From positions 1-26,177 of IMG/VR virus record IMGVR_UViG_3300049142_000056: a stretch of DNA of 26,177 bases, one strand, 5' to 3'. A program made the translations under genes and the position numbers. This DNA is from a virus. Lineage: Duplodnaviria; Caudoviricetes. Below, in pieces: positions 1-15,872 of this stretch; the stretch's first letter is position 1, and each line of letters opens with the position of its first letter. The notes beneath the pieces are model-generated. The model was given only the letters and a program-made list of their open reading frames with translations. It made no database searches and was not told the origin of the DNA.

Positions 1-67
1 CCATTAGGGGGGTTCCCCCCAGGTATGATCTTGCTGTTTATGCAGCCAATGAATCGTTATTCATTGA

Positions 68-612: not shown

Positions 613-629
613 GGGTTCACCTCCGTAGT

Positions 630-1511: not shown

Positions 1512-2212
1512 CAATCCGCCTCGACGAGGGCTCGGAGCTTCTTCAGGTCGCTGTCGAGGCCGCCTTCGTCGCGGTAGGCGTAATACGCGGCGGAGTCGCC
1601 GCTGACCCGCTCCTGGCTATTGGCTTCCTCGTAGCCTTCATCGACTGGAGCCTTGCCCGCCGCAGGGTGCAGGTGCTCGATGACCATGTCGGGCAGGTAC
1701 GTGATCCGCTGCATGCCGACTCCCCAGTCCTTCCAGACCAGATCGACACAAAGGTGCACGAACACCGGGGGCGCCATGTAGCCGAGCGTGCTGACGATGT
1801 CGGCGGTCATGGCTACGGCGGTCGGCATCAGCTCGCCCTGAAGCAGGTCGTTGCCGTAGACGATGCCGGGCCCGCCGGACAGGCACTCACGGATACGCGC
1901 GTCCCAGGCGGCCGTGCGCGGCCGGTGATCGTCGCCCATGAACCCGAGGAACCGGTAGCTCTTGGCGGCCTTCGCGGCCTGCTGGTTGAGGGTGCCGACG
2001 AGGCGCCTGCGCTTGCCGTAGGCGAACCGGACGCGGCCGTCGGCCTTCAGCTTGGCGGCTTCCGCCTTGTACGCGGCGAGTTGCGGGTCGTCGGTGTCGA
2101 CGGCGAACAGCACGTCGGCCGTGGCGCCGGTCGCATCCCAGGCGGCCATGATCTCGGGGATGGCCTGCGGCCGGCCGCGGGTGGGGATGATGACGAGCAG
2201 GTCGTCGGCCAT
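1511..2212 (-). CDS. Glycosyltransferase, family 2-like (GT-A fold)
   Basis: N-terminal LVIIPTRGRP, DxD-like FMGDDH, late IEHLHP motif; GGAGG RBS before the ATG at 2212; translationally coupled to the epimerase. Confidence 0.8.
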   Translation of the reverse strand: MADDLLVIIPTRGRPQAIPEIMAAWDATGATADVLFAVDTDDPQLAAYKAEAAKLKADGRVRFAYGKRRRLVGTLNQQAAKAAKSYRFLGFMGDDHRPRTAAWDARIRECLSGGPGIVYGNDLLQGELMPTAVAMTADIVSTLGYMAPPVFVHLCVDLVWKDWGVGMQRITYLPDMVIEHLHPAAGKAPVDEGYEEANSQERVSGDSAAYYAYRDEGGLDSDLKKLRALVEAD

Positions 2213-2251
2213 GTGCGCCTCCGTTGGGGTGGGGAGGCGCACAGGGCGGCT

Positions 2252-2809
2252 CTACTTGATGGTCCACTGGCCCGTCTGGTCGGCGAAGCCGCTGTTCATC
2301 GAGAACTGAATCGTGGTGATCTTCGAGTCCTTGGGGACTTCGAAGACGATCCATCCGAGCGCCTTGTCTCCAGGCGCGATCTTCAATGCCGCCTCCATGG
2401 ACGGCCCCGCGGTGACTTCGCCGAACGTCGCATGGAAGCGCTGCCCTTGGCTGTCGGCGACCTGCGCCCCGTTGGTGGGGCTGTCGCTGTAGGCCGCGGC
2501 GCCACTGTTGGTGAGCTGGAACTGGGCGGCGACCCAGCGCTTGCCGTCGTCCGGCTTCATGAACTCGTTGGCGCTCTTCGCCGGGTCAACCCACTGCTTG
2601 ACCGTGACGTCGAGTCGCTCGCCCTTGAGGTTGCCCTTGACGGTGATGGTGTCGCCTACTGCGGCCTTCATGGCTGCGCTTGGGCCGGCCTTGGCTGTGG
2701 CGGTAGCCGAGGCTTTCTTGGCGGGTGTCGTGGTCACGGTGCTTCCCTGACAGGCCGTTGCTGTCAGGAGCGCGCCGGCGACCGCCAGTCCGCCGAGGAT
2801 TCTTCGCAT
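2252..2809 (-). CDS. DUF4352-like Ig-fold lipoprotein
   Basis: Signal peptide MRRILGGLAVAGALLTATA-C (lipobox), Thr/Ala linker, then VGDTITV...KRWVAAQFQLTN...D..GQRF...IAPGDKALGWIVFEVP. Confidence 0.85.
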   Translation of the reverse strand: MRRILGGLAVAGALLTATACQGSTVTTTPAKKASATATAKAGPSAAMKAAVGDTITVKGNLKGERLDVTVKQWVDPAKSANEFMKPDDGKRWVAAQFQLTNSGAAAYSDSPTNGAQVADSQGQRFHATFGEVTAGPSMEAALKIAPGDKALGWIVFEVPKDSKITTIQFSMNSGFADQTGQWTIK

Positions 2810-2926
2810 GGTGCCCCCAGGTGTTGCTGAGATGAGGGGAGCATTCTGCGACTGTCCAGGGTTCAACTGTGCCCGGTGTTGCCGGTTCGTGACGCACTGC
2901 GGACCGGTGGGGTACGTGGGGGCCTG

Positions 2927-3937
2927 TCAGGCGGTGGTGTTGTCGGTGACGAGGCCGAGGGCGGCGAGCGCGGCGAGCAGGGAGGCGTAGGCCGTTCCGT
3001 CGCCATGGGAGCCACTGACGACGGGCTTCGTGACGGCGGTCGCACCGTAGAACCCGGCGGTGCCGTTGGCGCCGTTGAGGAGGTGCCGCACGGATCCGTC
3101 GCCGCCGGTGATGTTGACCGGGCCGACCGAGTTGACGCCGGCCAGGAAGGCCGTGCCCTGCTCGATCGCGGCGAGCCGGTTGAAGATGTCGTCCAGGAAG
3201 CCGTTCAGCACGGTGACCGTGCCGGACAAGCTCGTGAGGTCTGTCGCCGTGGCTGCGCCGATCGCTGCCGGGGTGACGGGGTCGGAGCCGCCGGTGGCGT
3301 GGCTCGTCGCGTGTGCCGTCGGTGTACGGGAGTTCACCGTCGTCGGGTCGTCGCTCTTGAGGGCGATCGTCGGCCCGGCACCGGCGGCACCGAGTGGCGG
3401 CTGGGGTCCGGCCGGTCCGGTCGGCCCTGTCGCTCCGGCGGGGCCGGTTGCTCCAGTTGCCCCCGTGGCGCCTGTCGGTCCTGCGGGGCCCGTGTCGCCG
3501 GTGTCGCCTTTGGGGCCGGTGGCTCCTGTCGCGCCGGTCGGCCCTGCCGGGCCTGCGGGGCCGGGTACAGCGAGGTATTCGCCGGTGGACGGCTGGGAGA
3601 CGGGCGCCAGGTCGGCGAGCTCAACAGTGCCCATGCCGGCGGTCAGCAGGACCGGGTAGGAGCGGCCTGGTGCGTCGTAGGGCGCTTCGGTGACCCGGTA
3701 CGTCCAGCCGGTGGGGTTGATGCCGGTGGCGTCGCAGGCGAGGACGGTGAGGGTGAGGAGTCCGTTGACCCATTCGGCTCGCGCCTCGCCCATGACGATC
3801 AGCCCGTGGTCGGCTGAGGAGATCGCGTCGACTTCAGGCCGCAGGGTGAGCCGGCCGCGCATGGGGCCGCCGTCGGGGTGCTGGCGGGTGTCGACGATCG
3901 TGACCGTCTGGAGGCCTGGCGGGAGCGACACGGGCAC
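2927..3937 (-). CDS. Collagen-like (Gly-X-Y) protein, fiber/minor virion protein-like
   Basis: GTG start after GGAGG; N-terminal domain with [12 protein letters not shown] as in actinophage fiber proteins; 18 Gly-X-Y triplets; C-terminal [11 protein letters not shown]...LAALGLV. Confidence 0.8.
3401..3562 (-). repeat. Collagen-like triplet repeat ([12 protein letters not shown] etc., 18 triplets)
   Basis: [54 protein letters not shown], residues 126-179 of the ORF. Confidence 0.9.
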
Positions 3938-3957
3938 CTCCAGACGGCGAGTTGGGG

Positions 3958-4066
3958 CCCGCTCCGGCCCGAGGGTGAAGTCGGCCGGAGCGGGGTGTCC
4001 CGCCGCCGTGAGCCCTGGGGAGGCGGCGGGACGTCGGGGCGCGAGCCTGGGGGTCGGGCGCCCCGA
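3958..4066 (-). other. Three consecutive GC-rich stem-loops in an intergenic leader
   Basis: Inverted repeats 3958-3969/3983-3994 (12 bp), 3997-4007/4022-4032 (11 bp) and 4034-4042/4058-4066 (9 bp). Confidence 0.7.
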
Positions 4067-4075
4067 GCTTGGGAG

Positions 4076-4297
4076 TCAGGCGGCGTGTGCGCCTTCGGGC
4101 AGCGGGGGCGGCTCACCGAGGTGCCGCTCGCCCCACTCGTCGACGGTGAGGCGCGGCAGTTCACGCAGGTCGTAGCGGACGCCTCTACCGTGGCCGTAGC
4201 GATGGATGCGGCCTTCGGAGGCCCATCGCCAGATCGTGCCGACGGGCCGTCCGGTGTAGTAGGCGGCGTCGGCTGCGGTGACGAGCTGGGGGTCCAT
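4076..4297 (-). CDS. Small helix-turn-helix DNA-binding protein (excisionase/MerR-like HTH), 73 aa
   Basis: MDPQLVTAADAAYYTGRPVGTIWRWASEGRI...VRYDLREL; start chosen at the ATG at 4297. Confidence 0.8.
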   Translation of the reverse strand: MDPQLVTAADAAYYTGRPVGTIWRWASEGRIHRYGHGRGVRYDLRELPRLTVDEWGERHLGEPPPLPEGAHAA

Positions 4298-4320
4298 GGA
4301 GGTCACCCCCAACATGCAGA

Positions 4321-4345
4321 AGGCCACCCGGTGTTCGGGTGGCCT
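4321..4345 (-). terminator. Hairpin, possible terminator/attenuator downstream of the putative late promoter
   Basis: Perfect 10-bp stem AGGCCACCCG/CGGGTGGCCT with 5-nt loop, followed on the minus strand by TCTGCATGTT. Confidence 0.55.
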
Positions 4346-4372
4346 CAGAGCGCAAGATTTCCAGATGAGCAC

Positions 4373-4402
4373 AGAGTGGCTTCGGTGATCGGCTTCTGTC
4401 AA
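4373..4402 (-). promoter_or_regulatory. Putative HrdB/sigma70-type promoter facing the late region
   Basis: Minus strand TTGACA (4402-4397) - 18 nt - CACTCT (4378-4373), in an intergenic gap of lower GC. Confidence 0.55.
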
Positions 4403-4421
4403 GCCAAACCGGCCATCGGCT

Positions 4422-4754
4422 CTAGGCGGATTCCGGCCGGGCCATCGCCCGGCACTCCTCAGCATGCGCCTGTGCCCAGTCGCGGGCGTCCCGCTCGGCG
4501 GCCTGAGGGTCTTTCACTTCCCACTGCGCAATGGTGCCGCGACGCATCCGCCAGTACGAGACCTCGATGGATGCCGAGCAGCCAGCGCAGGCGGCCCGGA
4601 TCAAGGGGCGGTCTGCGACGCTCCCGTCCGGGAAGTGGTGGGGCTTCTCAATGACGGCGAGATCGACTGTGGTCACGCCGTCGGCCACGCCTGCGACGGT
4701 GACGTACCGGGCGAGGATGCCCTCGGGCCAGGCGGTCTGCGATGCGGTAGTCAT
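4422..4754 (-). CDS. Hypothetical protein with CxxC...HxxxC putative zinc site
   Basis: AAGGAG RBS; ACAGC...WAQAHAEECRAM. Confidence 0.7.
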   Translation of the reverse strand: MTTASQTAWPEGILARYVTVAGVADGVTTVDLAVIEKPHHFPDGSVADRPLIRAACAGCSASIEVSYWRMRRGTIAQWEVKDPQAAERDARDWAQAHAEECRAMARPESA

Positions 4755-4765
4755 AGCGGGCTCCT

Positions 4766-4978
4766 TCAGTAGGCTGGGCCGTCGTATTCGACGGCGTAGA
4801 TCTGGGCGTCGGGGTTCTCGCGAGACGTGCGCAGTACGTCGGTGACGAGCGAGTCGATGCTGTTGGTCGAGTTGAAGCTGAGCAGGGCACCCGTGCGCTG
4901 GTCGTACAGCCGGTAGTGGATCTCGGTGAACTCCAGGCCGCGCTCAGGCAGCGGCCTGCCCTTCCAGATGTCAGCCAT
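4766..4978 (-). CDS. Hypothetical protein, 70 aa
   Basis: AAGGGG RBS, protein-like composition, fits the operon packing. Confidence 0.7.
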   Translation of the reverse strand: MADIWKGRPLPERGLEFTEIHYRLYDQRTGALLSFNSTNSIDSLVTDVLRTSRENPDAQIYAVEYDGPAY

Positions 4979-4987
4979 GGGGCCCCT

Positions 4988-5413
4988 TCAGCGCTGATTA
5001 CCGGTGGCCGCAGCGAGGATGTCGGCGTGATCGAATGCAAGCGGCGGCAGGTCATTGAGGGGCCACCAGCGGGCGGCGCGGGCGTCGGTTCCGGCCGTCA
5101 GGGCGGTACTGGCGGGCACCCGGGCGACGTAGGCGATGGTGACGTACCGGCCCCGCGGGTCACGGTCCGGCTGGTCGAAGACGCCGACCGGCAGCAGATC
5201 GGCCGAGGCTACGTGCACGCCAGCCTCCTCGTGCAGTTCACGGGCCGCTGCGCAGAGGGCAGTCTCCCCGCGGTCCACGTGACCGCCGGGCAGCGCCCAC
5301 ATGCCCTCGTGGGGCGGCCAACCACGTTCAATCAACAGCACATGGCCGTCCGGGGTGATGGCCACGACGTCGGCGGTGTAGCGGATGTTCTCGGGCGTCT
5401 CGGTGTCGGACAT
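4988..5413 (-). CDS. Nudix hydrolase (ADP-ribose pyrophosphatase/AICE Pif-like)
   Basis: Intact Nudix box GGHVDRGETALCAAARELHEEAGV; PDRDPRGRYVTIAY and LAFDHADIL motifs. Confidence 0.92.
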   Translation of the reverse strand: MSDTETPENIRYTADVVAITPDGHVLLIERGWPPHEGMWALPGGHVDRGETALCAAARELHEEAGVHVASADLLPVGVFDQPDRDPRGRYVTIAYVARVPASTALTAGTDARAARWWPLNDLPPLAFDHADILAAATGNQR

Positions 5414-5473
5414 GACGGTCTCCTCAGAGGCTGATGCGGGAGCGGCCGAAGCCGCGGACGGCGGAAGTGTGGT

Positions 5474-5701
5474 TCACCAGTCGACGCTGCCTGGGCCGTT
5501 GTCCTTCTCGTAGCGGTCCCAGAAGCGGGCGCCGCGTTCCTTGCTAGCCCGCTCGGCGTCCCGCCAGCCCTCCTTCATGGCGGCATCAACGCGCCCTCGG
5601 TATTCGCGCTGCTTACGGTCGGCGCGGGATTCCCGGCGCTGCGGCTGCACATCGGCGCCGGGGGTGTCGGACTTCGGATACTTCGGGGTGAACAGGCCCA
5701 T
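5474..5701 (-). CDS. Small hypothetical protein starting MGLF, 75 aa
   Basis: AAGGA RBS; MGLFTPKYPKSD...; 3' part of track ORF 5474..6181. Confidence 0.7.
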   Translation of the reverse strand: MGLFTPKYPKSDTPGADVQPQRRESRADRKQREYRGRVDAAMKEGWRDAERASKERGARFWDRYEKDNGPGSVDW

Positions 5702-5703
5702 GA

Positions 5704-6051
5704 CTACTTTTCCTTTGACTCCTGCATCTCCTGCCACATGCCCATGAGCATGCGGAGGCAGATGACGACGACGATCAGGGCGACACAGAGGACGGCCGCG
5801 ACGACGGCGAGGCCGAGGATGAACAGCAGCACGATCCCGACGACCGCGATGAGCGCCATGACGCCGAGGCAGCCGGCGCCGAGGTAGGCGCCCCACGGCC
5901 GGACGGGAATAGCCTGCTGCGGGGGGACGGGCGACGGGTCGCGGTAGGCGTACAGAGGCTGGCCGTCGTTGCCGATGCCGATCTGCGTGACGACGGCGAG
6001 GGGCTGCTGCCCGGCCTCGATGGTCGGGCGCTGGCCGGGCAGCGGGGACAT
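5704..6051 (-). CDS. SpdD-like membrane spread protein
   Basis: Pro/Gln-rich N-terminus, then a long hydrophobic stretch (GAGCLGVMALIAVVGIVLLFILGLAVVAAVLCVALIVVVICLRML) resembling Streptomyces SpdD; lies downstream of traB; GGAGG RBS. Confidence 0.6.
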   Translation of the reverse strand: MSPLPGQRPTIEAGQQPLAVVTQIGIGNDGQPLYAYRDPSPVPPQQAIPVRPWGAYLGAGCLGVMALIAVVGIVLLFILGLAVVAAVLCVALIVVVICLRMLMGMWQEMQESKEK

Positions 6052-6056
6052 GGTGG

Positions 6057-6245
6057 TCAGTCCTCCTGCGACGTGTAGTCGACGCTGCGGGCGAGGATGG
6101 CCATGGCGACGCGCTGCGAGTCGGCGCCGGCCCGGTCGCACAGGCGGTCGGCGGGGCCGCTGTCGTTCTTGGCGATGGCACGTGCGGCGTGGTCGATCTC
6201 AGCGCTGGAGGCGATGACTTCGGTCTTGCGGTTGAACAGGCCCAT
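6057..6245 (-). CDS. Small hypothetical protein starting MGLF, 62 aa
   Basis: AAGGAG RBS, ATG; MGLFNRKTEV... Confidence 0.75.
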   Translation of the reverse strand: MGLFNRKTEVIASSAEIDHAARAIAKNDSGPADRLCDRAGADSQRVAMAILARSVDYTSQED

Positions 6246-6257
6246 GACGGGCTCCTT

Positions 6258-6410
6258 TCATTTGACGACCATGTGGTCGGGATGGCCGTTGATCATGTGG
6301 TCGACGCACTCGGGGCAGTCCTCGCGCGGTGCCAGGCGGGCATGGACGCGGCGGCTGTCGTGGGCGTGCTGCCAGCACTGGCGGCACTCGCCTCGCGGTG
6401 CGAGGCGCAT
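6258..6410 (-). CDS. Small Cys/His zinc-binding protein (pRL2-8-like), 50 aa, not in ORF track
   Basis: Hand translation: MRLAPRGECRQCWQHAHDSRRVHARLAPREDCPECVDHMINGHPDHMVVK; two CxxCxxH motifs; TGATG overlap with the upstream gene. Confidence 0.75.
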   Translation of the reverse strand: MRLAPRGECRQCWQHAHDSRRVHARLAPREDCPECVDHMINGHPDHMVVK

Positions 6411-6673
6411 CAGAGCCAGCTGCGCCGCGTGGCCCGGTCGACGGCCTTCTGCTTCTTCGCCTCGAACCGGGCCCGATCGCGGGCTGCGGCGGCGGCCTCA
6501 CGGATCTCGCGCTTCTCCGCCTCACGGATCCGGGCGCGCTCGATGGTGCGGTCGATGCGGCGCTCTTCGGCTGGCGTCAGGTGACCGCCGCGGCGAAGAC
6601 CGGCCCACAGACCAGTGCCGAGGATCTTCGCGAGTTCGCGGTGGTTGATGTCGTCACGGTCGTTGATCGGCAT
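6410..6673 (-). CDS. Hypothetical helical basic protein, 87 aa
   Basis: GAGGAG RBS; coiled-coil-like C-terminal half ending RRSWL. Confidence 0.7.
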   Translation of the reverse strand: MPINDRDDINHRELAKILGTGLWAGLRRGGHLTPAEERRIDRTIERARIREAEKREIREAAAAARDRARFEAKKQKAVDRATRRSWL

Positions 6674-6675
6674 GG

Positions 6676-6792
6676 CTACTTCTCCTCGTCGGTGGGCGTG
6701 GTCGGCTGCGGCAGGCGCATGGAGAAGGTGACGGTGAAGTCGCCGTCGTCCTCCATCTCGATGTCGCTGCCGGTTTGCGGATTGGCGGGCAT
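6676..6792 (-). CDS. Small acidic protein, 38 aa
   Basis: AGGAGGA RBS, ATG; MPANPQTGSDIEMEDDGDFTVTFSMRLPQPTTPTDEEK. Confidence 0.5.
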   Translation of the reverse strand: MPANPQTGSDIEMEDDGDFTVTFSMRLPQPTTPTDEEK

Positions 6793-6849
6793 GGCGGTCC
6801 TCCTGGAGGTGGTGGGTGATGCGCGGAAGTGCCGTTTCGGGGGGCTTGA

Positions 6850-6967
6850 TGAGGTGATGGCGAGGCGCCTCACCTCCTCACCAGATCGCCGTTTGCGCAG
6901 GTCACGGCCGGTGGGGCGGCTTGGTGGGGCAGTTGGTGGAAAGTCACCGCCCCACCCGAGCCTCACC
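6850..6967. repeat. Cluster of 8-bp repeats at the 3' end of traB; candidate clt (cis-acting locus of transfer)
   Basis: GCCYCACC or its complement GGTGRGGC at 6867, 6910, 6923, 6949 and 6960, plus a 7-bp CCTCACC at 6876. Confidence 0.5.
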
Positions 6968-9103
6968 AAGGTCGTTCTCGTCGTCCTGGCGGCCGTCGAG
7001 CGCCTTGAGGACGCGGCTCAGATGGATGACGGGATAGCCCTGGTAGATGTCCGTGTCCTCGCCGTGATCAGTCATCAGGCGCCTGAGGCGGACGCCGTCC
7101 CAGTCGGTGTAGACGGCCGGGTTGAGGTTCTTCAGACGGTGGATGATCTCCGGTGTGCGGACGCGCTTCTCGCCTTCGAGTACCTGCTCCAGATCGGCGA
7201 GATGGTCGACGTCCTCAACGGCTTCGAGCTTGGGCACCGCCGCGACGCGAGTCCGCAGCGCCAGCGCCCGGTCCGCGATTTCCTGGGCGTCGGGCTCGGT
7301 GTCCACGAAGTGCGTGCGCACCGTCAGCGCCGCCTCGCCGGGCGGAAGTTCTACACCGTCCCCGGCGACGACCAGGGTTCCCTTGTCCAGGCCCTGACGC
7401 AGCAGGTGGGGCGCCGCGCCGCCGTCGACGGCCTTGTCGCCGAGCGCCATCCGGGCCTGCGACTCGGTACCCACCACCAGAGAAGCGCGGATGTGCGCCC
7501 CCTCGCGGACCAGCTTCGGCAGGTTCTGGTCCGTCGGGTCCTGGGTTCCCTCCCAGAGCACCACGTCGACTGCGCGGCCCTGGTTGTGAATCCTTCGGGC
7601 ACCCATGAAGTACCTGCTCGTGGACTTGGAACCCCCGTAGGGCGGCCCGTCCTTGATCTTGTCGTCGTCCGTGTAGATCCGGGTCTTGGCGGGGTTCATG
7701 AACGCGACCTGCGCCTCGTCGACGATGACGACCAGTGGATTCCACTTGGTACCAGCGGGCGCCAGGAGCCGGCGGTTCATCTCCTCGACGGCATCCTCGA
7801 CCATCTCGGTGACGTCGATGGCGTGCTCGTCAGTCGGTCCTTCGATCAGGCGGTTGGCGATGCCGGAGAACATGCGCCAGTCGCCGATGCCCTTGAGGTC
7901 GCCGATCCAGAACTCAACGCTGCGGTCGAATGCCAGCCACAACGCCAGGGCCCGCAGCGCGGCGGTCTTGCCCTGGTTGGACAGGCCAGTGATCAGGACG
8001 TGCCTCTGGTACAGGCTGAGCGTCACCGGCTCACCGCGCAGGTTCTGACCCCAGGGAGCCCGCCCGGTCTTGTAGTTGGCGGACGGCTCCGGGTCGGTGA
8101 CCAGCGGCGACGGCCCAATCGGCTCGTCAAGGGCGCCAGAGTCGGCAATCCACAGCTTCACCGTTCGCGGCTGCGGCGACTTGAGAATGAACACCTCGTG
8201 CTCGTGGCGCCCGAGGTTCTCGGCGAGCTTGCGGCGCCGGGGTTCGATCTCGTCGGTGGAGACGCTGGACGGCAGCGTGACGTCGACCTCGACGCCACAG
8301 CCGGCAAGGACAATCGGCGACAGCATCGACGCGCCACCGTCCTCCATAGCCACGATGGCCTTCTTGAGCTCGGAGATCCGCAGGTCACGGAACGCCTTGA
8401 CCACGATCGACGGAGTGATCAGCTCCCCCTCCACGCTGCGCTGCTTCGCCGGGAGCGCCCACTGCGGAGCGGTCTGGCGCTGACGCCCAACACCCCACAG
8501 TGAGAGCAGGGCAAGCCACGGCGCAGTGATGATGAACGGGCCCCACACGACGGACGCGACAACGACCGCCCAATGCACCAGGTCGATGGCCGTAGCGATC
8601 GGCACAAGAGTCTGAGCTGGGTCTTTCTCGGCTATGGCCATGAGGACGCCGAGCCCGATCAAGCTGCCTGCTCCGATACCGGTGGCGACGGCAACCCCCT
8701 TGGCGGCGTCGACCGGGGACTTGAGGAGGTCCATGCGGCGTGCGTGGCGGGCGGCACGGTACTGGCGGCCCTTCTCCTCCCACTCCTTGATCTCCTCATA
8801 CTTCCCGGCCGCCTCGCAGGATCGGATCATGCGCTCGTAGCGGGCCGCAGTCCGTCCGTCCCAGGTGCGGCGCGCGACGATGCGGGTGCCGCCGACGACG
8901 TACATGCCGTGCCGTACTACCAGGCGGCCGGTGGCACGGGTGCGCTCGTGGGTGATGACGTACTTCGCGCGGCGGGCTGCCCGCCGGTACAGGGCTTGCC
9001 GTGGCAGCTCTGCGGCTGGCCCGCGGTCCACTGGCTCCGGTACCAGAGTGAGCGACGGACGCTCGTCCTTGACGAGGCTGACGGGTTCGGCGGTGGTGGT
9101 CAT
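6944..9103 (-). CDS. traB: TraB-like FtsK/SpoIIIE DNA translocase of actinomycete plasmids/AICEs, 719 aa
   Basis: N-terminal transmembrane segments, Walker A GLSNQGKT, GDLKG, Walker B VVIVDEAQ, QGRAV, GTQDP, short C-terminal wHTH-like domain; neighbours are spd-like genes. Confidence 0.85.
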   Translation of the reverse strand: MTTTAEPVSLVKDERPSLTLVPEPVDRGPAAELPRQALYRRAARRAKYVITHERTRATGRLVVRHGMYVVGGTRIVARRTWDGRTAARYERMIRSCEAAGKYEEIKEWEEKGRQYRAARHARRMDLLKSPVDAAKGVAVATGIGAGSLIGLGVLMAIAEKDPAQTLVPIATAIDLVHWAVVVASVVWGPFIITAPWLALLSLWGVGRQRQTAPQWALPAKQRSVEGELITPSIVVKAFRDLRISELKKAIVAMEDGGASMLSPIVLAGCGVEVDVTLPSSVSTDEIEPRRRKLAENLGRHEHEVFILKSPQPRTVKLWIADSGALDEPIGPSPLVTDPEPSANYKTGRAPWGQNLRGEPVTLSLYQRHVLITGLSNQGKTAALRALALWLAFDRSVEFWIGDLKGIGDWRMFSGIANRLIEGPTDEHAIDVTEMVEDAVEEMNRRLLAPAGTKWNPLVVIVDEAQVAFMNPAKTRIYTDDDKIKDGPPYGGSKSTSRYFMGARRIHNQGRAVDVVLWEGTQDPTDQNLPKLVREGAHIRASLVVGTESQARMALGDKAVDGGAAPHLLRQGLDKGTLVVAGDGVELPPGEAALTVRTHFVDTEPDAQEIADRALALRTRVAAVPKLEAVEDVDHLADLEQVLEGEKRVRTPEIIHRLKNLNPAVYTDWDGVRLRRLMTDHGEDTDIYQGYPVIHLSRVLKALDGRQDDENDLGEARVGR

Positions 9104-10164
9104 CAGTTATATCCCCCTCCGCCGGCTCCGACTTCACCGTCGTCGGCGGGCTGCTCGTCGGGTGTTGCGCCCGGCGCAACAGGGCGCTTCTTAGAGCGCG
9201 ACAGGACGGACCGGACCTGGTTCGGCTTGACGTCTAGGGAGTGCCGGACGGCAACGTGCTCGACGATGGCCGCGGCGGGCGCATCAGGGCCGAGCAACTG
9301 CGCAACATCCTGAATTGCCTCGGACTTGGTCAGCGCGGGACGATCCGCACTGACCTGCGGCGCAACACGTGTTGCGCCCTGTTGCGCCTGCCGCTCCACG
9401 GTCACCTCAATGGGACGGAAGCCGAGGACAAGCGCCACCTGCACCGCATCAACGATCACGCCGTAGGAGATCAGTTGCGACGCCAGTTCGCCCGGCGCCA
9501 GAGCGGGTTGCGCCTCGTGTGCGATGCGGATCGCCTCGGCGGGATCCATCTCCGCGAAGCGTCGCCTCAGTACCGCCGTAGCCGAACGGTCCTTGCCGTC
9601 CGCTGCGGGCGTTGCGCTCGTGTTGCGGGCAGCGTGCTCAATGTGCTCGACGGCGCGCTGCTTGACGCTGCGACCGGCCCGAGCCGGCGCCAGGAGCCAT
9701 ACCCAGCCACCGAAGGCTGGCAGCCGGAACGGAATCTCACCGCGCTCGACACGGGCCCGGTATCGGGCCGCGGACCACGCGAGGCCCGATGGCAGCAACA
9801 GGGCCAGCGTGGGGCTGGAGAACAGGATCGCGGCCGGAATGACGGGCAGGTTCCCATCGAGGAGCCGGGCGTGGGTGGTGTTGAGATAGCAGGAGAGGCC
9901 AGCCATGACGAGCGTGCCGAGCACGGCGCCGATTGCAGCGCGGCCTTCCTGCACGGCGACTGAGGCCAAGAACATGCAGGCGATGGCCGCACCGTCGAAG
10001 ACGGCGACCGCGCCGAACGCGAACAGCTTGGGTACGCCGTAGGTGTCGTGCGCGATGACGTACAGGGACCAGCCGGTCATGGCGAGTGCGGCCAGCGACA
10101 CGACAGTGATGGATACCCGCCACGGGGCGCGACTGACGAACGAACGCCAGGCGTTGCGGTTCAT
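9103..10164 (-). CDS. DUF2637/SpdA-like membrane transfer-spread protein, 353 aa
   Basis: About four N-terminal transmembrane helices (LAMTGWSLY...AVAVFDGAA...LNTTHA...SSPTLAL), soluble C-terminus with an HTH-like end; directly upstream of and coupled to traB. Confidence 0.7.
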   Translation of the reverse strand: MNRNAWRSFVSRAPWRVSITVVSLAALAMTGWSLYVIAHDTYGVPKLFAFGAVAVFDGAAIACMFLASVAVQEGRAAIGAVLGTLVMAGLSCYLNTTHARLLDGNLPVIPAAILFSSPTLALLLPSGLAWSAARYRARVERGEIPFRLPAFGGWVWLLAPARAGRSVKQRAVEHIEHAARNTSATPAADGKDRSATAVLRRRFAEMDPAEAIRIAHEAQPALAPGELASQLISYGVIVDAVQVALVLGFRPIEVTVERQAQQGATRVAPQVSADRPALTKSEAIQDVAQLLGPDAPAAAIVEHVAVRHSLDVKPNQVRSVLSRSKKRPVAPGATPDEQPADDGEVGAGGGGYN

Positions 10165-10238
10165 GAGAGTGCCCGTTCCAGGAGGTACGCGAACAGGATG
10201 AGCGGCCAGATCATGGCCAGGAGATAAAGGGCTTTCAC
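10161..10238 (-). CDS. Putative 25-aa single-TM micropeptide
   Basis: VKALYLLAMIWPLILFAYLLERALS; 4-nt start/stop overlaps at both ends (GTGA, ATGA). Confidence 0.5.
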   Translation of the reverse strand: MKALYLLAMIWPLILFAYLLERALS

Positions 10239-10411
10239 CACGTCACGCTCCGGTGGACACGGTGGACGATGATCCCGGCGGCGAGGGCTGCGACGAGGGC
10301 GGTCTGGCCGAGGAGCCAGCCGAGCCCGCTCGGCGCGGCGTCGGCCAGCCACGGGGCGCGCTGCCACAGAACAAGCAGCAGGAAGATCAGGACGTAGGTG
10401 GACGGTCGCAT
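10235..10411 (-). CDS. Small two-TM membrane protein, 58 aa, not in ORF track
   Basis: Hand translation: MRPSTYVLIFLLLVLWQRAPWLADAAPSGLGWLLGQTALVAALAAGIIVHRVHRSVTW; AGGAGG RBS. Confidence 0.65.
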   Translation of the reverse strand: MRPSTYVLIFLLLVLWQRAPWLADAAPSGLGWLLGQTALVAALAAGIIVHRVHRSVTW

Positions 10412-10496
10412 CACGGCCTCCTAGGCAGGTGCGCGGTTGAGCGGTACGGTCAACTCCCCTCACCGCCGGTCAGGGACCGGCGGATCGGGCAGCTGG

Positions 10497-10676
10497 TCAG
10501 CCGAGTCGGCGCCAGCACGGCAGTGCCTTCTCGGCCTGGGCGACGCGGTCGTTGGCGTCCAGGTAGTCGTCGCTCTCGCACCGGTCTCGTCGGCTGATCC
10601 GGTCGAGCTCGGCCTTGGCGGCGCTGTGCTGGGCTCGGGCCTCAGGGCTGCCAGCGATCTTCTTGAACAGGCCCAT
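10497..10676 (-). CDS. Small hypothetical protein starting MGLF, 59 aa
   Basis: GAGGAG RBS; MGLFKKIAGS...ALPCWRRLG. Confidence 0.7.
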   Translation of the reverse strand: MGLFKKIAGSPEARAQHSAAKAELDRISRRDRCESDDYLDANDRVAQAEKALPCWRRLG

Positions 10677-10763
10677 AACGGGCTCCTCTCGCAACCGGCC
10701 GGACTGTCCGGCCGCTGCGCCCCACACCCGGGCAGGCGTGTGGAGCACAGCGGGCAGACAGGG

Positions 10764-11012
10764 TCAGCGGATTGCGGTCCATTTACCGTTCTTGCCGCGC
10801 GCGTAGGGCTGGCTGGTACTGATGGTCCCGCCGCGCTCGCCCTCTTCCTTCGTGGCGACGACGGCGGTGTCCTTGCCGTACATGCGGACCGTGCCGCCGA
10901 GAGCCAGAGCGCGACGCCGCAACTGGTCATCGGTGAGCTCACGCTGAGTGATTTCAGCGAAGTAACGCTGCTCGGGAGTGGTGTCGACGTGGCGGCGACC
11001 GAAGATTCCCAT
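10764..11012 (-). CDS. Small hypothetical protein starting MGIF, 82 aa
   Basis: AAGGAG RBS; MGIFGRRHVD... Confidence 0.75.
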   Translation of the reverse strand: MGIFGRRHVDTTPEQRYFAEITQRELTDDQLRRRALALGGTVRMYGKDTAVVATKEEGERGGTISTSQPYARGKNGKWTAIR

Positions 11013-11081
11013 GGTGGGACTCCTTGATGTGGCGTGGGGTGGGCGATGTCGAGTGCGCTGGTCAGCGTCGGCGGTTGCGGG

Positions 11082-11237
11082 TCAGCTCCCCTTGACGCCG
11101 GGCCGCCGCCGGACCGTGGCAGGCTGCGGCTGCGTGCCCGGCCGGTCGCCAGAAGCGCCGCTGGTCGTGGTGCCGGTGGAGTGGCCGTAGGGGCGGCGGG
11201 TCTCCCAGCCGCGCTCACCGCGCTGACGGAACGGCAT
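11082..11237 (-). CDS. Putative small basic protein, 51 aa
   Basis: Hand translation MPFRQRGERGWETRRPYG...VKGS; TGATG overlap with the upstream gene. Confidence 0.4.
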   Translation of the reverse strand: MPFRQRGERGWETRRPYGHSTGTTTSGASGDRPGTQPQPATVRRRPGVKGS

Positions 11238-11386
11238 CACGCCTCACCACCGTCAACCTCGTCGTGCGAGCCGGGCGGGCACTGGTCCATCCAGCAGTGA
11301 TGCACGCGGCAGGCCTCGGGCAGCTCGTAGCCGAGCGCGTGCCACAGGTCGTCGGAGATCGCCAGCGGTTCGGTCGCGGCAGTCAC
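11237..11386 (-). CDS. Small Cys/His protein, 49 aa, not in ORF track
   Basis: VTAATEPLAISDDLWHALGYELPEACRVHHCWMDQCPPGSHDEVDGGEA; GTGA overlap; GGAGG upstream. Confidence 0.55.
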   Translation of the reverse strand: MTAATEPLAISDDLWHALGYELPEACRVHHCWMDQCPPGSHDEVDGGEA

Positions 11387-11679
11387 GACCACCACCTCCG
11401 CTTCCGCTTCGCAGACTGAGCAACCTCGGCCTCAGACCGCCGGGCAGACTCCACCAGCCCATCCCGGCGGGCCCGCTGACGGTCCGCCTCTCGCCGAGCA
11501 GCAGACGCCTTGGCCGGATCGCTGTAATCGCGGCCCTCCCGCCCATACACGTCGGCGCCCATCTGGTGCCGCTGCGCCTCCTGATCCGCCGCATGGGCGA
11601 GCCGATACAACGCAGGCGCCTGGCGGGCTGCGTACCGCTGCTCCTCCGTCGGCATGTCCTTGAACCGGCGCACCATCAC
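11383..11679 (-). CDS. Hypothetical helical protein, 98 aa
   Basis: Coupled ORF; ends KRKRRWWS. Confidence 0.7.
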   Translation of the reverse strand: MMVRRFKDMPTEEQRYAARQAPALYRLAHAADQEAQRHQMGADVYGREGRDYSDPAKASAARREADRQRARRDGLVESARRSEAEVAQSAKRKRRWWS

Positions 11680-11843
11680 GCGGCCTCGGCATTCGCTCGG
11701 ACGTAGCTAGCGGCCTCGTGCGCGGCACGGTCGGCAGCGGATACGCCCGGGCCGGCGTCGACGGGGACAGCCAGGGCACGCTCCAACCGGAGCAGTGCAG
11801 CCTCAGCGGCCGGGGAAAGCGGAGCAGTCAGGTCGGTGTCCAT
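11676..11843 (-). CDS. Hypothetical protein, 55 aa
   Basis: MDTDLTAPLSPAAEAALLRLERALA...; stop/start overlaps at both ends. Confidence 0.6.
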   Translation of the reverse strand: MDTDLTAPLSPAAEAALLRLERALAVPVDAGPGVSAADRAAHEAASYVRANAEAA

Positions 11844-12142
11844 CAGGCCACCGCCCCGCACCGCACGCCGAGGAGCTCGTCGACCAGCGGCACCTCGTCC
11901 GGGTGAGCCTTGTCGTAGCGGCGGGCCTCCTCGCGGAGCTCAGCCTTGACCCGCCAGTCGCCGGCCGTCGCATACAGCTCGATCAGCCGGGCCCGGTACG
12001 CCGAGTCGTCGACGTGCAAGTCGGACGCCAACGGGGCCGGCTCGCCGAGAACGCGGCGCAGAGGCTCACGGGCCGCAGCGACGGCGAAGGGGGACGGGTG
12101 ATCGTCACCCAGGCGTACCTGGGTAAGGTGCTTGTTAGCCAT
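11843..12142 (-). CDS. Hypothetical protein, first gene of the transfer operon, 99 aa
   Basis: GAAGGG RBS before the ATG at 12142; MANKHLTQVRL... Confidence 0.65.
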   Translation of the reverse strand: MANKHLTQVRLGDDHPSPFAVAAAREPLRRVLGEPAPLASDLHVDDSAYRARLIELYATAGDWRVKAELREEARRYDKAHPDEVPLVDELLGVRCGAVA

Positions 12143-12286
12143 CAGGGGACCCTTCAGAGATTCCTGGTGGTAGGCCCTGGCACGGGAGTGGAGTCCCGGC
12201 GCTGGGGCCGTTCTGTTTTTGGTTGTGCGCACAGCTGGTGGAGCAGCTGCTGAAGCCTCGGGCGGTGGAGCGCCGTTCGCTTCTGT

Positions 12287-12363
12287 ACCCTATTGAAGGG
12301 TGCCGACTGACGCCTTGTCAACACCCTATTGAGCGTTGGCGAGTTGACTTCTACTCTGACCTC
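12287..12363 (+). promoter_or_regulatory. Divergent control region: leaderless HrdB-type promoter with repeated operator-like boxes
   Basis: TTGAGC (12329-12334) - 17 nt - TACTCT (12352-12357), 6 nt before the ATG at 12364; ACCCTATTGA at 12287 and 12323; minus-strand TTGACA at 12321-12316. Confidence 0.6.
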
Positions 12364-12708
12364 ATGACAGATGCGTTCACGGAGTCCCTGGAGGCGAAAG
12401 TCGCCGAAGTCGCGGCCATCGAAGACCTCGTCCAACGCGTTCTTGCTGCCCGTCTCGCACGCGACCAACTGGCGACGAGTGACCGCGCGCTGCACGCGAC
12501 GACGCAGGCCGCGCTGAGGGATCTCAAGCCGGGACGCACCTGGGCGGAAGTGGGGCGGATGTTCGGGCGTAGCCACTCTTGGGCGGAAGCTCTGGCAACG
12601 GGACGCAGCGCCAAGCGGCGAAGGACTGCACATGCCTCTGAGTCAACGGCCCCCGCGGGCGCGGCAGAAGGACAGCCGCCCGTCACCGACGCGCCAACGG
12701 AGCCGTAG
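12364..12708 (+). CDS. HTH DNA-binding protein, probable Kor-like repressor of the divergent transfer operon
   Basis: RTWAEVGRMFGRSHSWAEALATG HTH; divergent from the tra operon; no RBS (leaderless geometry). Confidence 0.65.
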   Translation: MTDAFTESLEAKVAEVAAIEDLVQRVLAARLARDQLATSDRALHATTQAALRDLKPGRTWAEVGRMFGRSHSWAEALATGRSAKRRRTAHASESTAPAGAAEGQPPVTDAPTEP

Positions 12709-12780
12709 CCGGACGCCGCCGCGCCACGCACCAGACACCGCACAGCCAAACCCGAGCACGATCAGCACGGGAGCGTTTTG

Positions 12781-13416
12781 ATGGACGTCGTTGACTCCTG
12801 GACCGGCCGGACGGCCTGCCTCCTCCAGAGCGCCATGCGAATGACCAACGAGGACTTCGCAGAGCGCCTCGGGATCTCCGTCCGGACCGTGACCCGGTGG
12901 CACGCGGCACCGAACATGACCCATCGGATCGAGGTGCAGCAGATCCTCGACACAGCTTACGAACAGGCAGGTGAGGCGGTGCAGCGGCGATTCCAGCTCC
13001 TCGTCCGGCCGCCTGAGCCAGCCGCGCAGGCGCAGGCTCTTCGTGTCGCTATAGCGATCGTCACCCGCGGGGACGATGTGCTCCTCGTCTGCCGCCGCGG
13101 CGACGCCTCGCTGTCATGGCAGTTCCCGGCAGGGATGGTGAAGCCCGGTGGCAGCGTCGAAGCGGTCGCCGTCCAGGAGACTCACGCGGAAACCGGCGTG
13201 CACTGCGCGGTCCGCCAGCAGCTCGGGTCCCGCGTCCACCCGCAGACGGGAGTACTCGCGTCCTATGTGCTGTGCGACTACCTGGCCGGCGAGGCGGCGA
13301 ACCTCGACAGCGTCGAAAACCTCGACGTCAGCTGGGTCCCGCGCGCGACCCTCACGCGTTTCATTCCAGCAGACCGCATCTACGCACCGATCCTCACGGC
13401 CCTGGAGGCAGCATGA
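12781..13416 (+). CDS. XRE-type HTH fused to a degenerate Nudix domain
   Basis: MRMTNEDFAERLGISVRTVTRW HTH; WQFPAGMVKPGGSVEAVAVQETHAETGV Nudix box lacking several conserved E/R residues. Confidence 0.85.
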   Translation: MDVVDSWTGRTACLLQSAMRMTNEDFAERLGISVRTVTRWHAAPNMTHRIEVQQILDTAYEQAGEAVQRRFQLLVRPPEPAAQAQALRVAIAIVTRGDDVLLVCRRGDASLSWQFPAGMVKPGGSVEAVAVQETHAETGVHCAVRQQLGSRVHPQTGVLASYVLCDYLAGEAANLDSVENLDVSWVPRATLTRFIPADRIYAPILTALEAA

Positions 13417-13820
13417 CCGACACCGAGCCCAAGCCTGTCGTCTCGATGGCGATCATTGCCCGCGACGGTGCGGTGCTGATGATCCGCCGACGCCAGAAGG
13501 AGGGCGAACTCCTGTGGGCTTTCCCGGGGGGCGCCGTGGAGGAGGGCGAGACTGCCGAGCAGGCCGCAGTCCGCGAGGTCGCCGAGGAGGTCGGGCTGAC
13601 GGTCGAGTCGCAGAAGGCGCTGGGGCAGCGCATCCACCCGCAGACTGGCCGAGAGATGGTCTACACGGCCTGCACGGTGGTCGACGGAGAACCGGCGGTC
13701 CTCGACGAGGAGGAGATCGCCGAGGTCGCCTGGGTGAAGCACGCCGAGATCGACCAGCACGTACCGCGAGGCCTGTTCGAGCCGGTGCGGGAGTACCTGG
13801 ACCAGGTGCTAGTCGGCTAG
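13413..13820 (+). CDS. Nudix hydrolase, 135 aa
   Basis: Intact box GGAVEEGETAEQAAVREVAEEVGL; GGAGG RBS and ATGA overlap with the upstream gene. Confidence 0.92.
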   Translation: MTDTEPKPVVSMAIIARDGAVLMIRRRQKEGELLWAFPGGAVEEGETAEQAAVREVAEEVGLTVESQKALGQRIHPQTGREMVYTACTVVDGEPAVLDEEEIAEVAWVKHAEIDQHVPRGLFEPVREYLDQVLVG

Positions 13821-13928
13821 CGAGTGCACAAGTACGGCCGGAGTGCGTCAACACTCCGGCCGCAGAAACCAGCGGGTCATCACCCCGCTGATCAAGAAAT
13901 CCCACCTCGGCAGAGAAGGAATCCCGTC

Positions 13929-14225
13929 ATGAGCTTAACGCGCATGCCCATTGTCGACTTCAGCCCTTGGGGATTTTTGACCGTCCCGCTGGACGATCTC
14001 CTCACCAAGCTGGACGCCGTAGTCACCGACCTGCCCACCGACGAGCCCGACTTCTACGGTGCGATGCTCCGCCGGGACTGGGGGCTGCAAGTCGTGGTCT
14101 CGGCCCGGCTCGGCGAGGTCGAGCGGGACCTGGCGGTACGCGGTCTGCTGGCTGCCTGGTTCTGCGTCGACACCGTCGACTGGCCGCTGGATTTGCACTT
14201 CGAGGAGTTCCAGACCGCCGCCTAG
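13929..14225 (+). CDS. Hypothetical acidic protein with a TTA codon at position 3
   Basis: AGAAGGA RBS; ATG AGC TTA ACG; 98 aa. Confidence 0.65.
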   Translation: MSLTRMPIVDFSPWGFLTVPLDDLLTKLDAVVTDLPTDEPDFYGAMLRRDWGLQVVVSARLGEVERDLAVRGLLAAWFCVDTVDWPLDLHFEEFQTAA

Positions 14226-14235
14226 CCCCGGACGC

Positions 14236-14274
14236 ACGAAGCGCCCCCGACCGTGATGGTCTGGGGCGCTTCGT
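14236..14274. terminator. Probable bidirectional terminator between convergent genes
   Basis: ACGAAGCGCCCC/GGGGCGCTTCGT 12-bp stem extended by GACC/GGTC. Confidence 0.75.
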
Positions 14275-14903
14275 CATGCCGCGCTGCGTTCGGCGAGCGG
14301 CAGCCCGAGGACTTCGGCGTGCCCGTACTGCTGGCCGCAGCCGCCGCACTGCCGGCCGGGGGTGTCGAGGGTGACGCGGAGGATGGTGCCGCAGGGGCAG
14401 GTGACGGGGATGCGGCGGGGCGGGCGTTCGCCGTTGATGCCGCCTTCGCACTGGCGCCGCAGCTGCCATATTTCGCGGCCGAACTCATCCAGGGCTGGGT
14501 GTGCGGACGCCGCTCGGGCCAGGTTGAGGCGGAGGGTGCTGACGGCCTGGTCGACGCGGTGCTGGAGTCCGCCGCCGGCGCCGACTTGGGCGAGCCCGTA
14601 GGTGGCCCAGTCCTCGACCCACGTTTCGAGCGTGGAGACGATCCCGCCGTTCGCGGTCAGGTTGAGCACTTCGAGCCGCACGGGCACGGGTGCGGTGCGG
14701 GTGCCGGCGACGCTGGGGCCGTCACCGCTCCGGCCAGGGTGGATGCGGAGGCAGAGGCGGGCGTAGAGACCGCCGGGTCCGGCGAGTTCGCGAAGGTCGC
14801 CGTCGATGCGCTGTTCGCAGGGCCGGCAGATGTACCGACCGAGCTCGTCGGTGTAGAGACTGCGGGGGCAGATGACGCAGAAGGCGGCGGCTTCCTCGGT
14901 CAC
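14274..14903 (-). CDS. Cys-rich zinc-finger protein, putative late transcription regulator
   Basis: GTG after GGAG; CVIC...ICRPC at the N-terminus, RIPVTCPCG...CGGC at the C-terminus; last gene of the early region. Confidence 0.7.
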   Translation of the reverse strand: MTEEAAAFCVICPRSLYTDELGRYICRPCEQRIDGDLRELAGPGGLYARLCLRIHPGRSGDGPSVAGTRTAPVPVRLEVLNLTANGGIVSTLETWVEDWATYGLAQVGAGGGLQHRVDQAVSTLRLNLARAASAHPALDEFGREIWQLRRQCEGGINGERPPRRIPVTCPCGTILRVTLDTPGRQCGGCGQQYGHAEVLGLPLAERSAA

Positions 14904-14932
14904 GGCGTTCTCCGTTCGGACGGTGCGGTGGG

Positions 14933-15259
14933 TCAGGGGGTGGTGACGGTGATGCGGGTGCCGTCCCAGTGCAGGACGTCGCCGGATGAGGCGACGAGGG
15001 CGGGTTCGTCGTCGCGCTGGAGGGTGAGGCCGCCGTAGCCGAGGCTGGTCCGGTAGCCGTGCTGGCGGCACCAGCGCACGGGCAGGTCGAGGGGCATGTC
15101 CATGTGCAGGCGGAGCTGTGCGGGGTCCATCGCGTACCGGTTGGCGACCATGGACCTGAGCAGGCGGGCGTCGCGCTGGAGCCTGTCCCGCTTCTCGTAC
15201 CCGGCGGCACGCCGGGCCTGGTGTTCGTACTCGGCGGCGAGTTCGGCGAGGGTCGTCAC
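14933..15259 (-). CDS. Hypothetical phage protein, 108 aa
   Basis: GTGA overlap; VTTLAELAAEYEHQ...GDVLHWDGTRITV. Confidence 0.65.
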   Translation of the reverse strand: MTTLAELAAEYEHQARRAAGYEKRDRLQRDARLLRSMVANRYAMDPAQLRLHMDMPLDLPVRWCRQHGYRTSLGYGGLTLQRDDEPALVASSGDVLHWDGTRITVTTP

Positions 15260-15531
15260 GGCTGGGTCTCCGCTCCGTTGAGCGCGTCGATCGTTGGGCA
15301 GGGCCACGGGATGACGTCGCCGCTGATCTGGTTGCAGTGGGCGCACGAGTCGGTGGCGTCGTCGTACACGGACCGGTATTGCTGATGGAGCGTCCTGATG
15401 CGGGCGATGGCGGCCTTCGTCTGCCTTGCCGTCGCTTCGCCGCTGGCGCACATTTCGGCGAGGTCGAGCTCGTCCCAGTTCTCCAGGAAGAACCGGGCGC
15501 GTTCACTGAGTTCGTCGTAGCGGCTGGTCAC
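15256..15531 (-). CDS. Hypothetical phage protein with H...CxxC...WPCPT zinc motif
   Basis: IRTLHQ...CAHC...PWPCPTIDAL, a common actinophage motif; GTGA overlap. Confidence 0.75.
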   Translation of the reverse strand: MTSRYDELSERARFFLENWDELDLAEMCASGEATARQTKAAIARIRTLHQQYRSVYDDATDSCAHCNQISGDVIPWPCPTIDALNGAETQP

Positions 15532-15872
15532 AAGTTCTCCTGGTCGTAGCACGCGTTCCAGTACCGCCGGTCGGCGTTGCCTTCCTCGGCCGGGGTGGTG
15601 TCGCCAGGGGCCTGCCGCTCCAGCAGCGTGCTGGCGGCCTCGGGGTCGGGGCATTCGAGGTGGGAGCAGGTGACGTAGCCGCCGTCAGCGACGAACAGCG
15701 ACTCGCGGCGGCACGCCGGGCAATGGCCCTTGATCCACGGGGGGTGCGGCTCGTCGGGCTGGGCAACGGTGCTTGTCGCGATGACGTTGCGGGGTGGGCG
15801 GGCGGCGAGAACCGCGGCGGCTTCGGCCGTCTTCTCGGTGTTCCAGTAATGGATCTCGGGCTGGTCGTTCAC
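15528..15872 (-). CDS. Hypothetical zinc-ribbon phage protein, 114 aa
   Basis: GAGGAGG RBS; GHCPACRRESLFVADGGYVTCSHLECPDP. Confidence 0.7.
   Translation of the reverse strand: MNDQPEIHYWNTEKTAEAAAVLAARPPRNVIATSTVAQPDEPHPPWIKGHCPACRRESLFVADGGYVTCSHLECPDPEAASTLLERQAPGDTTPAEEGNADRRYWNACYDQENL

Follow-up and report, generated by a model that had tools for sequence, protein, structure and literature searches.

A TraB-type transfer module in a fixed slot of Streptomyces phages that may carry phage DNA between hyphae without virions

Introduction

Can a phage genome pass from one Streptomyces hypha to the next without virions? The question is raised by a virus record of 26,177 nt, IMGVR_UViG_3300049142_000056 (taken whole, and called the window below), in which a block of genes at 4420-14225 is built around a TraB/FtsK-type DNA translocase. 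According to the accessible text of PMC4447253, TraB alone suffices for conjugative, inter-hyphal transfer and binds 8-bp clt repeats; it also interacts with Spd proteins, takes part in intramycelial spreading, and is toxic when no repressor is present. An earlier note on this DNA had read the block as a transfer module domesticated by a prophage, and not as an actinomycete integrative and conjugative element (AICE) nested within one. From sequence comparisons we conclude that the module is widespread and apparently functional, and that it probably moves the phage genome, excised and replicating as a circle, between hyphae and onward through the mycelium in the form of double-stranded DNA and without virions.

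Results and Discussion

The translocase, described as intact in the earlier note, is indeed so: Walker A (GLSNQGKT) and Walker B (DE) motifs are both complete, the FtsK Pfam profile is matched at E 1.5e-5, and two N-terminal transmembrane helices are predicted. A predicted model of the protein (mean predicted local distance difference test score, pLDDT, 78.5) has an FtsK motor as its best structural match (Foldseek E 6e-15; VIA Z 28.4, root-mean-square deviation 3.7, 329 residues aligned), with the HerA fold ranking below it (VIA Z 22.0). Residues 634-703 form a confident helix/strand pattern in the full model, and the structural neighbors of this C-terminal domain are the C-termini of actinobacterial FtsK proteins and an OST-HTH domain (template modeling score, TM, 0.59). 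The modeled domain is likely to be a winged helix; a stand-alone model of it was poor (pLDDT 47) and unusable.

Nor is there any sign of decay in the gene. The closest TraB overall (89-91% identity) belongs to provirus G001, whose synteny matches that of the window and which encodes head, tail and lysis proteins. Between the two traB genes dS is 0.50 and the ratio of nonsynonymous to synonymous substitution rates (dN/dS) is 0.109, even along the gene (0.08-0.12) and 0.12 in the C-terminal domain. The G004/G006 pair gave a ratio of 0.089, and more distant pairs gave 0.23-0.57, values for which the GC content probably leads to too low an estimate of dS. The comparison with G001 points to purifying selection on the window traB, strong at a dS of 0.5. 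Four small open reading frames (ORFs) within 5474-6792 gave ratios of 0.17-0.31 against G001.

With an FtsK-fold pump that has a C-terminal domain and short repeats next to it, Spd-like partners and a putative Kor-like regulator, the module resembles the TraB/clt/Spd systems of pSVH1 and pIJ101 as far as the accessible sources outline them; the window TraB, however, sits in a phage and is of another kind. Because it scores 15 bits against the NCBIfam plasmid_TraB profile, whose cut-off is 800, it belongs to a different TraB subfamily, and it has no match at 1e-5 among 50,697 annotated phages. Plasmid NC_007431, which we take to be pSVH1, encodes an FtsK/SpoIIIE-domain protein with 45% identity to the TraB of a related prophage.

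A clt-like array lies at the end of traB. The 8-bp repeats seen in the earlier reading are confirmed: the GGTGAGGC family is present in eight copies in 250 nt (at most one mismatch, both strands), against a mean of 4.4 and a maximum of 7 copies in 40 random control windows. The array aligns position by position with those of AICE homologues, but it is written in another word. The window and G001 each have no GGGAG and 12 GGTG(A/G) sites, whereas the means in 78 AICE loci are 8.9 and 1.1. TraB residues 661-695 are 94% identical to G001 and only 28% identical to AICEs, being among the parts of the protein least alike between them. Most other phage TraBs likewise have a repeat word of their own. 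Over 741 (non-independent) pairs of 39 TraBs, repeat similarity went with the C-terminus (partial rho 0.27) rather than with the motor (0.05); TraBs of the G008 type (G008, L151, L155) were left out of this test, and in G008 and L155 no array directly follows the TraB gene. Natural swaps are seen as well: G007 and L158 are alike in the motor (0.96) but not in the C-terminus (0.13) or the repeats (0.00), and G007 and L161 show the reverse. The type of repeat therefore pairs with the TraB C-terminus. The combinations of C-terminal domain and repeat word that occur naturally, in 12 TraB types, offer a test set for how TraB reads DNA.

The array also bears on what the pump would carry. TraB could act on the integrated prophage and mobilize the host chromosome in an Hfr-like manner, so that the phage rides along or the host becomes fertile. 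According to the available part of PMC4447253, traB/korA of pIJ101 promotes DNA transfer when integrated in the chromosome; the module itself also lacks genes for excision or replication. The private repeat array right after traB, however, points to phage DNA as the cargo, and integrase and replication functions are encoded elsewhere in the phage genomes; we regard chromosome mobilization as quite improbable.

Among chromosomal sequences, the closest kin of the window TraB are AICE pumps. The nearest chromosomal Streptomyces TraBs are 59-64% identical to that of the window, and the 80 best chromosomal homologues lie in AICE-like elements in which profiles find an integrase nearby in 70 cases, a primase-polymerase (Prim-pol) in 39, and a terminase or portal in none. 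A 13.5-kb circular element, NZ_CP108827, has the full AICE layout and a TraB that is 53% identical. The likeness to AICEs of the pSAM2/SLP1 type (53-64% identity for the Streptomyces TraBs) extends to the clt layout after traB, a putative divergent regulator, Nudix genes and Spd-like membrane genes. By the definition in the accessible text of PMC3218068, however, an AICE unites Int, Tra and Rep. The phage module has an FtsK-domain Tra, but no int, xis, replication initiator (RepSA, RepAM or Prim-pol) or flanking att direct repeats, which in AICEs usually lie at a tRNA, were found: Pfam, PHROG and NCBIfam profiles match no integrase or rep in 4420-14225, and the longest word common to both junction zones, 10 nt, is the modal chance value. 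On all three counts the sequence agrees with the earlier note, and a nested autonomous AICE was rejected because int, rep and att are missing. Because integrase and Prim-pol are absent, the same phage gene adjoins TraB at 37 of 78 loci (see below), selection is purifying and the repeats are type-specific, the comparisons lend good support to a domesticated module, as first proposed.

Could it instead be a decaying AICE or plasmid that had entered a phage genome and lost int, xis and rep? The AICE-like gene set and nearest homologues, the empty slots of relatives and one broken TraB (L191) would fit, but there is no att or duplication at the junctions, 12 TraB types share one neighborhood, and profiles for integrase and Prim-pol/DUF3631 found nothing in 78 related loci except one Xer-like match. 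Purifying selection is strong at a dS of 0.5, and several small module genes occur in prophages but not in 81 AICE loci. Such a remnant is very improbable and already largely refuted. Relatives lacking the module and showing a clean insertion scar had been named as evidence that would count against domestication; the empty slots were seen, but no scar rose above chance.

We then asked how widely the arrangement is shared. The parts of the module were found where the earlier note had placed them, between the Cys-rich 14274 gene and the late promoter with its helix-turn-helix (HTH) gene; empty-slot phages likewise define its position as lying between the stop of the former and the TTGAC promoter. 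Eight virus records related to the window (nine with the window, G000-G008) were found, three via TraB and five via the 14274 gene. All eight encode a terminase, a portal and an FtsK-type ATPase with Walker A and B motifs that is 18-91% identical to the window TraB, and four have a long tyrosine integrase. Among these records there is free exchange of regulators, either GntR-UTRA or HTH-Nudix, and of membrane genes; a GntR-UTRA protein holds the divergent-regulator position in G001, G002 and G006. GntR, the usual class of divergent Kor/TraR repressor in TraB/clt modules, is absent from the window, which has a small divergent protein and an HTH-Nudix fusion in this position.

The proposed search of Streptomyces prophages for this synteny was also successful. 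Homologues of the 14274 gene occur in 72 of 401 sampled Streptomyces genomes, at 80 places, of which 78 were retained, the two left out being a duplicate and half of a split match. TraB stands beside this gene at 37 of the 78, in 35 of the 401 genomes (a lower bound), and at 23 of the 30 best-scoring places. These 37 consist of 32 with TraB in the 20 kb examined and five with TraB upstream, the latter among 20 of the 46 remaining places whose upstream DNA was examined; L224, counted among the 37, is the module lying upstream of a different place in the set, and L191 is a TraB fragment. A terminase or portal lies within 20 kb at 30 of the 37, and near none of the 80 GTDB loci of the AICE-like set. 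At 40% identity, 40 phage TraBs form 12 groups, and because their FastTree tree has long branches we make no claim about the direction of capture or the number of origins.

All seven TraB-positive chromosomal prophages that were followed further encode a tyrosine integrase outside the module, at a distance of 10-22 kb on its upstream side; in two this integrase is next to a tRNA gene, and in five a tape-measure gene lies downstream. The prophage status given in the earlier note is thus shown for relatives, which have integrase, terminase and portal, and for the window, which itself has no integrase or virion genes, it rests on them.

The kinship of TraB with AICE pumps, the fixed slot in phages, purifying selection, a clt layout kept with a changed word, and a precedent in pZL12 are our reasons for favoring transfer of the phage genome without virions. 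The phage integrase and replication genes (HTH replication protein, DnaB) would stand in for the int, xis and rep of an AICE. A repressor would hold traB off in the lysogen; the excised circle would be loaded at the repeat array and pumped into a neighboring hypha, where the phage DNA would integrate or go lytic. By analogy with Pif, a Nudix protein that prevents redundant transfer of pSAM2 (PMC2440964, accessible text), the Nudix genes may limit transfer from lysogen to lysogen.

The precedent is a Streptomyces plasmid-phage, pZL12 or phiZL12, reportedly described by Zhong et al. in 2010; phiSF1 and pFP4 are further plasmid-phages. Transfer of pZL12 by conjugation is cited in the available part of PMC3583192. 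The FtsK gene of pZL12 (NC_013420) precedes the packaging region, as in the loci described here, and stands there with a divergent GntR; pZL12 is a precedent for a phage with a conjugation pump. It is, however, a circular 90-kb replicon with ParA/ParB, whereas the relatives of the window are proviruses or have tyrosine integrases, and its distant TraB gives no match to that of the window at 1e-5. Single-sequence profiles of its ParA and ParB, which have low sensitivity, found no match in G000-G008 or in 40 flanking stretches. No literature on TraB modules in integrating prophages was found in a search that did not extend to most subscription journals; some of these loci might be entered as remnants in the tables of AICE surveys.

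A broader proposal is that a large proportion of the temperate phages of Streptomyces follow a dual route, integrating as well as conjugating, and have repeatedly taken TraB and clt from AICEs or plasmids into one pre-packaging slot, each with a private pump-address pair; we put this forward tentatively, at slightly less than even confidence. If the transfer reading is right, about 1 in 11 of the sampled Streptomyces genomes (35/401, a lower bound) holds a prophage that spreads by cell contact. Receptor-level resistance would be bypassed, which bears on phage control in fermentations, on gene flow among soil actinomycetes and on the boundary between phages and conjugative elements. A dual-route phage would enter hyphae without its receptor, and could be a hidden source of pocks and chromosome mobilization.

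Several observations weigh against virion-free transfer. The 26,177 nt of the window contain no integrase, terminase or capsid gene. At 41 of the 78 places there is no TraB match in the DNA examined (including upstream DNA for 20 of the 46 without TraB downstream), many relatives having an empty slot; at least nine places keep an Spd-like membrane operon without TraB, several more have similar membrane operons, and the complete provirus G411 has a membrane gene but no TraB. Such TraB-less relatives, together with the L191 fragment, imply that the pump is dispensable. In four full-length phage TraBs (L159, L165, L230, L235), from at least two lineages, Walker A reads AK for GK. Because the C-terminus and the repeats adjoin, recombination alone would swap both, and the pairs behind the correlation are not independent. 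Finally, repeat positions are not conserved significantly better than spacers between the window and G001 (34/5 vs 71/23, p 0.16).

The TraB-less operons also fit a role in exclusion or defense, in which the membrane proteins and Nudix enzymes would keep other conjugative elements or phages out, with TraB carried along as a passenger or serving as a conditional kill gene. Pif is, after all, a Nudix immunity factor of pSAM2 (PMC2440964, as excerpted), unregulated traB is toxic (PMC4447253, likewise), many prophages have the membrane operon without TraB, and HerA/FtsK-fold ATPases of defense complexes are among the lower-ranked fold matches. We nevertheless consider exclusion or defense highly unlikely, since it leaves unexplained both the type-matched repeat arrays and the purifying selection on the whole of TraB including its C-terminal domain, and the best fold match is FtsK, not HerA. 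As a separate observation, a slot filled by an intact-looking small regulator and an Spd-like operon, with no TraB, is found in L177, L188, L190, L194, L199, L201, L202, L205, L206, L209, L210, L212, L215, L219 and G411; these operons may use the pump of another element or serve exclusion.

Isolated phages raise a further alternative. Hiyaa, Spocter, Keanu, Galactica and the Thermobifida phage P1312, all available as test systems, likewise carry an FtsK-like gene, which in P1312 was read by its authors as serving DNA segregation (PMC4569894, accessible text). In Hiyaa (L148:17124-22648) the gene occupies this slot, about 5 kb downstream of the 14274-gene homologue, after a membrane protein, but its TraB is very distant. 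The five repeat copies after it are no excess, being reached by 18 of 40 controls, and no integrase is annotated in bases 1-79,349 of 83,219. Both results speak against the transfer reading, and they fit a role in lytic growth.

TraB and its membrane proteins might accordingly act only inside the infected mycelium. During infection or induction they would move replicating phage DNA through vegetative cross-walls, or to the compartments of spores, and strains would not mate. The interaction of TraB with Spd proteins and its part in intramycelial spreading (PMC4447253, in the text available), the FtsK-like genes of isolated phages, Hiyaa among them, and the commonness of Spd-only cassettes would all be expected of such a role. 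The putative divergent repressor and the Nudix genes are nonetheless kept, and in pSAM2 such genes govern transfer from donor to recipient (PMC2440964, in part); a hairpin and converging genes set the module apart from the early operon; and TraB alone is enough for inter-hyphal transfer (PMC4447253, in part). We therefore rate confinement to the infected mycelium as unlikely, and continue to favor transfer of the phage genome between hyphae.

Other Features of the Window

Table 1. Features of the module and its borders (window coordinates)
Position	Strand	Feature	Basis or remark
4076..4297	-	HTH_17 (excisionase-like fold) gene; phage backbone, outside module	PF12728 29.8 bits; first gene after late promoter
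4322..4402	-	Putative late promoter, TTGACA at 4402-4397, then GC hairpin 4344-4322; left module boundary	By eye
4422..4978	-	Two small ORFs, 110 and 70 amino acids (aa)	Gene calls; 110-aa ORF has homologues in 7 prophage loci
4988..5413	-	Nudix hydrolase, intact box	PF00293 E 4e-24; 69-71% identical to AICE/prophage copies
5474..6792	-	Small ORFs after traB, including Pro-rich protein with two transmembrane segments (5704-6051) in SpdD position	
6808..6967	-	clt-like array, 12 GGTG(A/G) half-sites, both orientations	Layout as in GGGAG arrays of AICE homologues
6944..9103	-	TraB/FtsK-type DNA translocase, 719 aa: transmembrane anchor, motor ~224-618, C-terminal helix/strand domain ~630-705	
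9103..10164	-	Multi-transmembrane protein, DUF2637-related (Spd-like), translationally coupled to traB	5 hydrophobic segments
10235..12142	-	Run of small ORFs heading transfer operon; protein with single transmembrane segment at 10235-10411	Some common to G001, AICE or other prophage loci
12143..12363	.	Divergent promoter region; possible operator formed by a 10-bp direct repeat (12287, 12323)	
12364..12708	+	Small divergent protein, putative Kor-like repressor	82 homologues; weak HTH signal
12781..13820	+	HTH-Nudix fusion (12781-13416, Nudix box degenerate) and Nudix hydrolase (13413-13820)	
13929..14225	+	98-aa conserved ORF closing module	72% identical in G001; homologues in 7/9 virus records
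14237..14273	.	Hairpin between converging 13929 ORF and late gene; likely terminator; right boundary	87% identical in G001
14274..14903	-	Conserved Cys-rich gene, DUF7341-related, closes early region; putative late-gene regulator; slot marker	Function by position only

Among the accessory genes (Table 1), the three Nudix domains of the earlier note are all present. That at 4988-5413 is a candidate for a Pif-like transfer-immunity factor, and the HTH-Nudix and Nudix pair recurs in 10 prophage loci and in AICE locus L022. Other assignments held in part. The proposed DUF2637/SpdA-like protein at 9103-10164 has no direct DUF2637 match, but 10 of its 120 listed homologues match PF10935, and homologues are annotated as DUF2637 or conjugal transfer protein. 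The SpdD likeness of the 5704-6051 protein resides in its position and its Pro-rich two-transmembrane shape, as a BLAST search of AICE loci gave no match at 1e-3. The small divergent protein called an HTH is indeed divergent, but it has no Pfam HTH match of its own, and one of 15 aligned homologues matches Sigma70_r4 at E 0.002. The direct repeat upstream of it has no close pair in relatives.

At the left border, a consensus scan found no sigma-70 promoter in the putative late promoter; the layout of TTGAC, hairpin and ribosome-binding site upstream of the late HTH gene is also present in relatives, and in empty-slot phages the HTH_17 gene directly follows the late gene. In L198, L182, L216 and L003 (G003) the repeat array leads straight to the late HTH gene and a separate promoter is not seen, and L200, which has no TraB, retains the end of such an array. 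The protein neighbors of the 14274 gene are DUF7341 or hypothetical proteins; a function taken from the PDB was rejected, as the matches were a weak ribosomal zinc ribbon and others at chance level. From its position we would guess at an antiterminator-like role. Lambda Q and pR' form an antitermination system, which the late promoter and hairpin, standing behind this gene in empty-slot phages, recall by analogy.

The window, a whole virus record, is a fragment of a phage genome, with nearly all genes on the minus strand and no tRNA genes. Its gene order is RecE/RecT, methyltransferase, HTH replication protein and DnaB, the Cys-rich gene, the module and the HTH_17 gene, followed by collagen-like, DUF4352, glycosyltransferase, epimerase and HNH genes. 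The sequence was found in one public run, a soil metagenome that is possibly its source; contigs of that run match 1-7393, 7377-12372 and 12354-15794 without differences. Each module junction is bridged by a single contig, which speaks against misassembly there, with the caveat that the run may be the source itself. None of the public runs listed as containing the window is an RNA dataset, and the sole match in a metagenome scan was the G002 contig.

Base 1 is the start both of the record and of one contig of that run, and is located immediately beyond the HNH gene, where there is a G6/C6 hairpin (1-60); this may mark an end made by packaging or the point where assembly stopped. The epimerase, glycosyltransferase and DUF4352 lipoprotein genes (630-2866), between the late HTH and HNH genes, possibly serve glycosylation of the virion or the host surface. 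The methyltransferase-like phage gene at 21385-22065 is 40-60% identical to genes adjoining traB in many AICE loci, which suggests further exchange between the two types of element.

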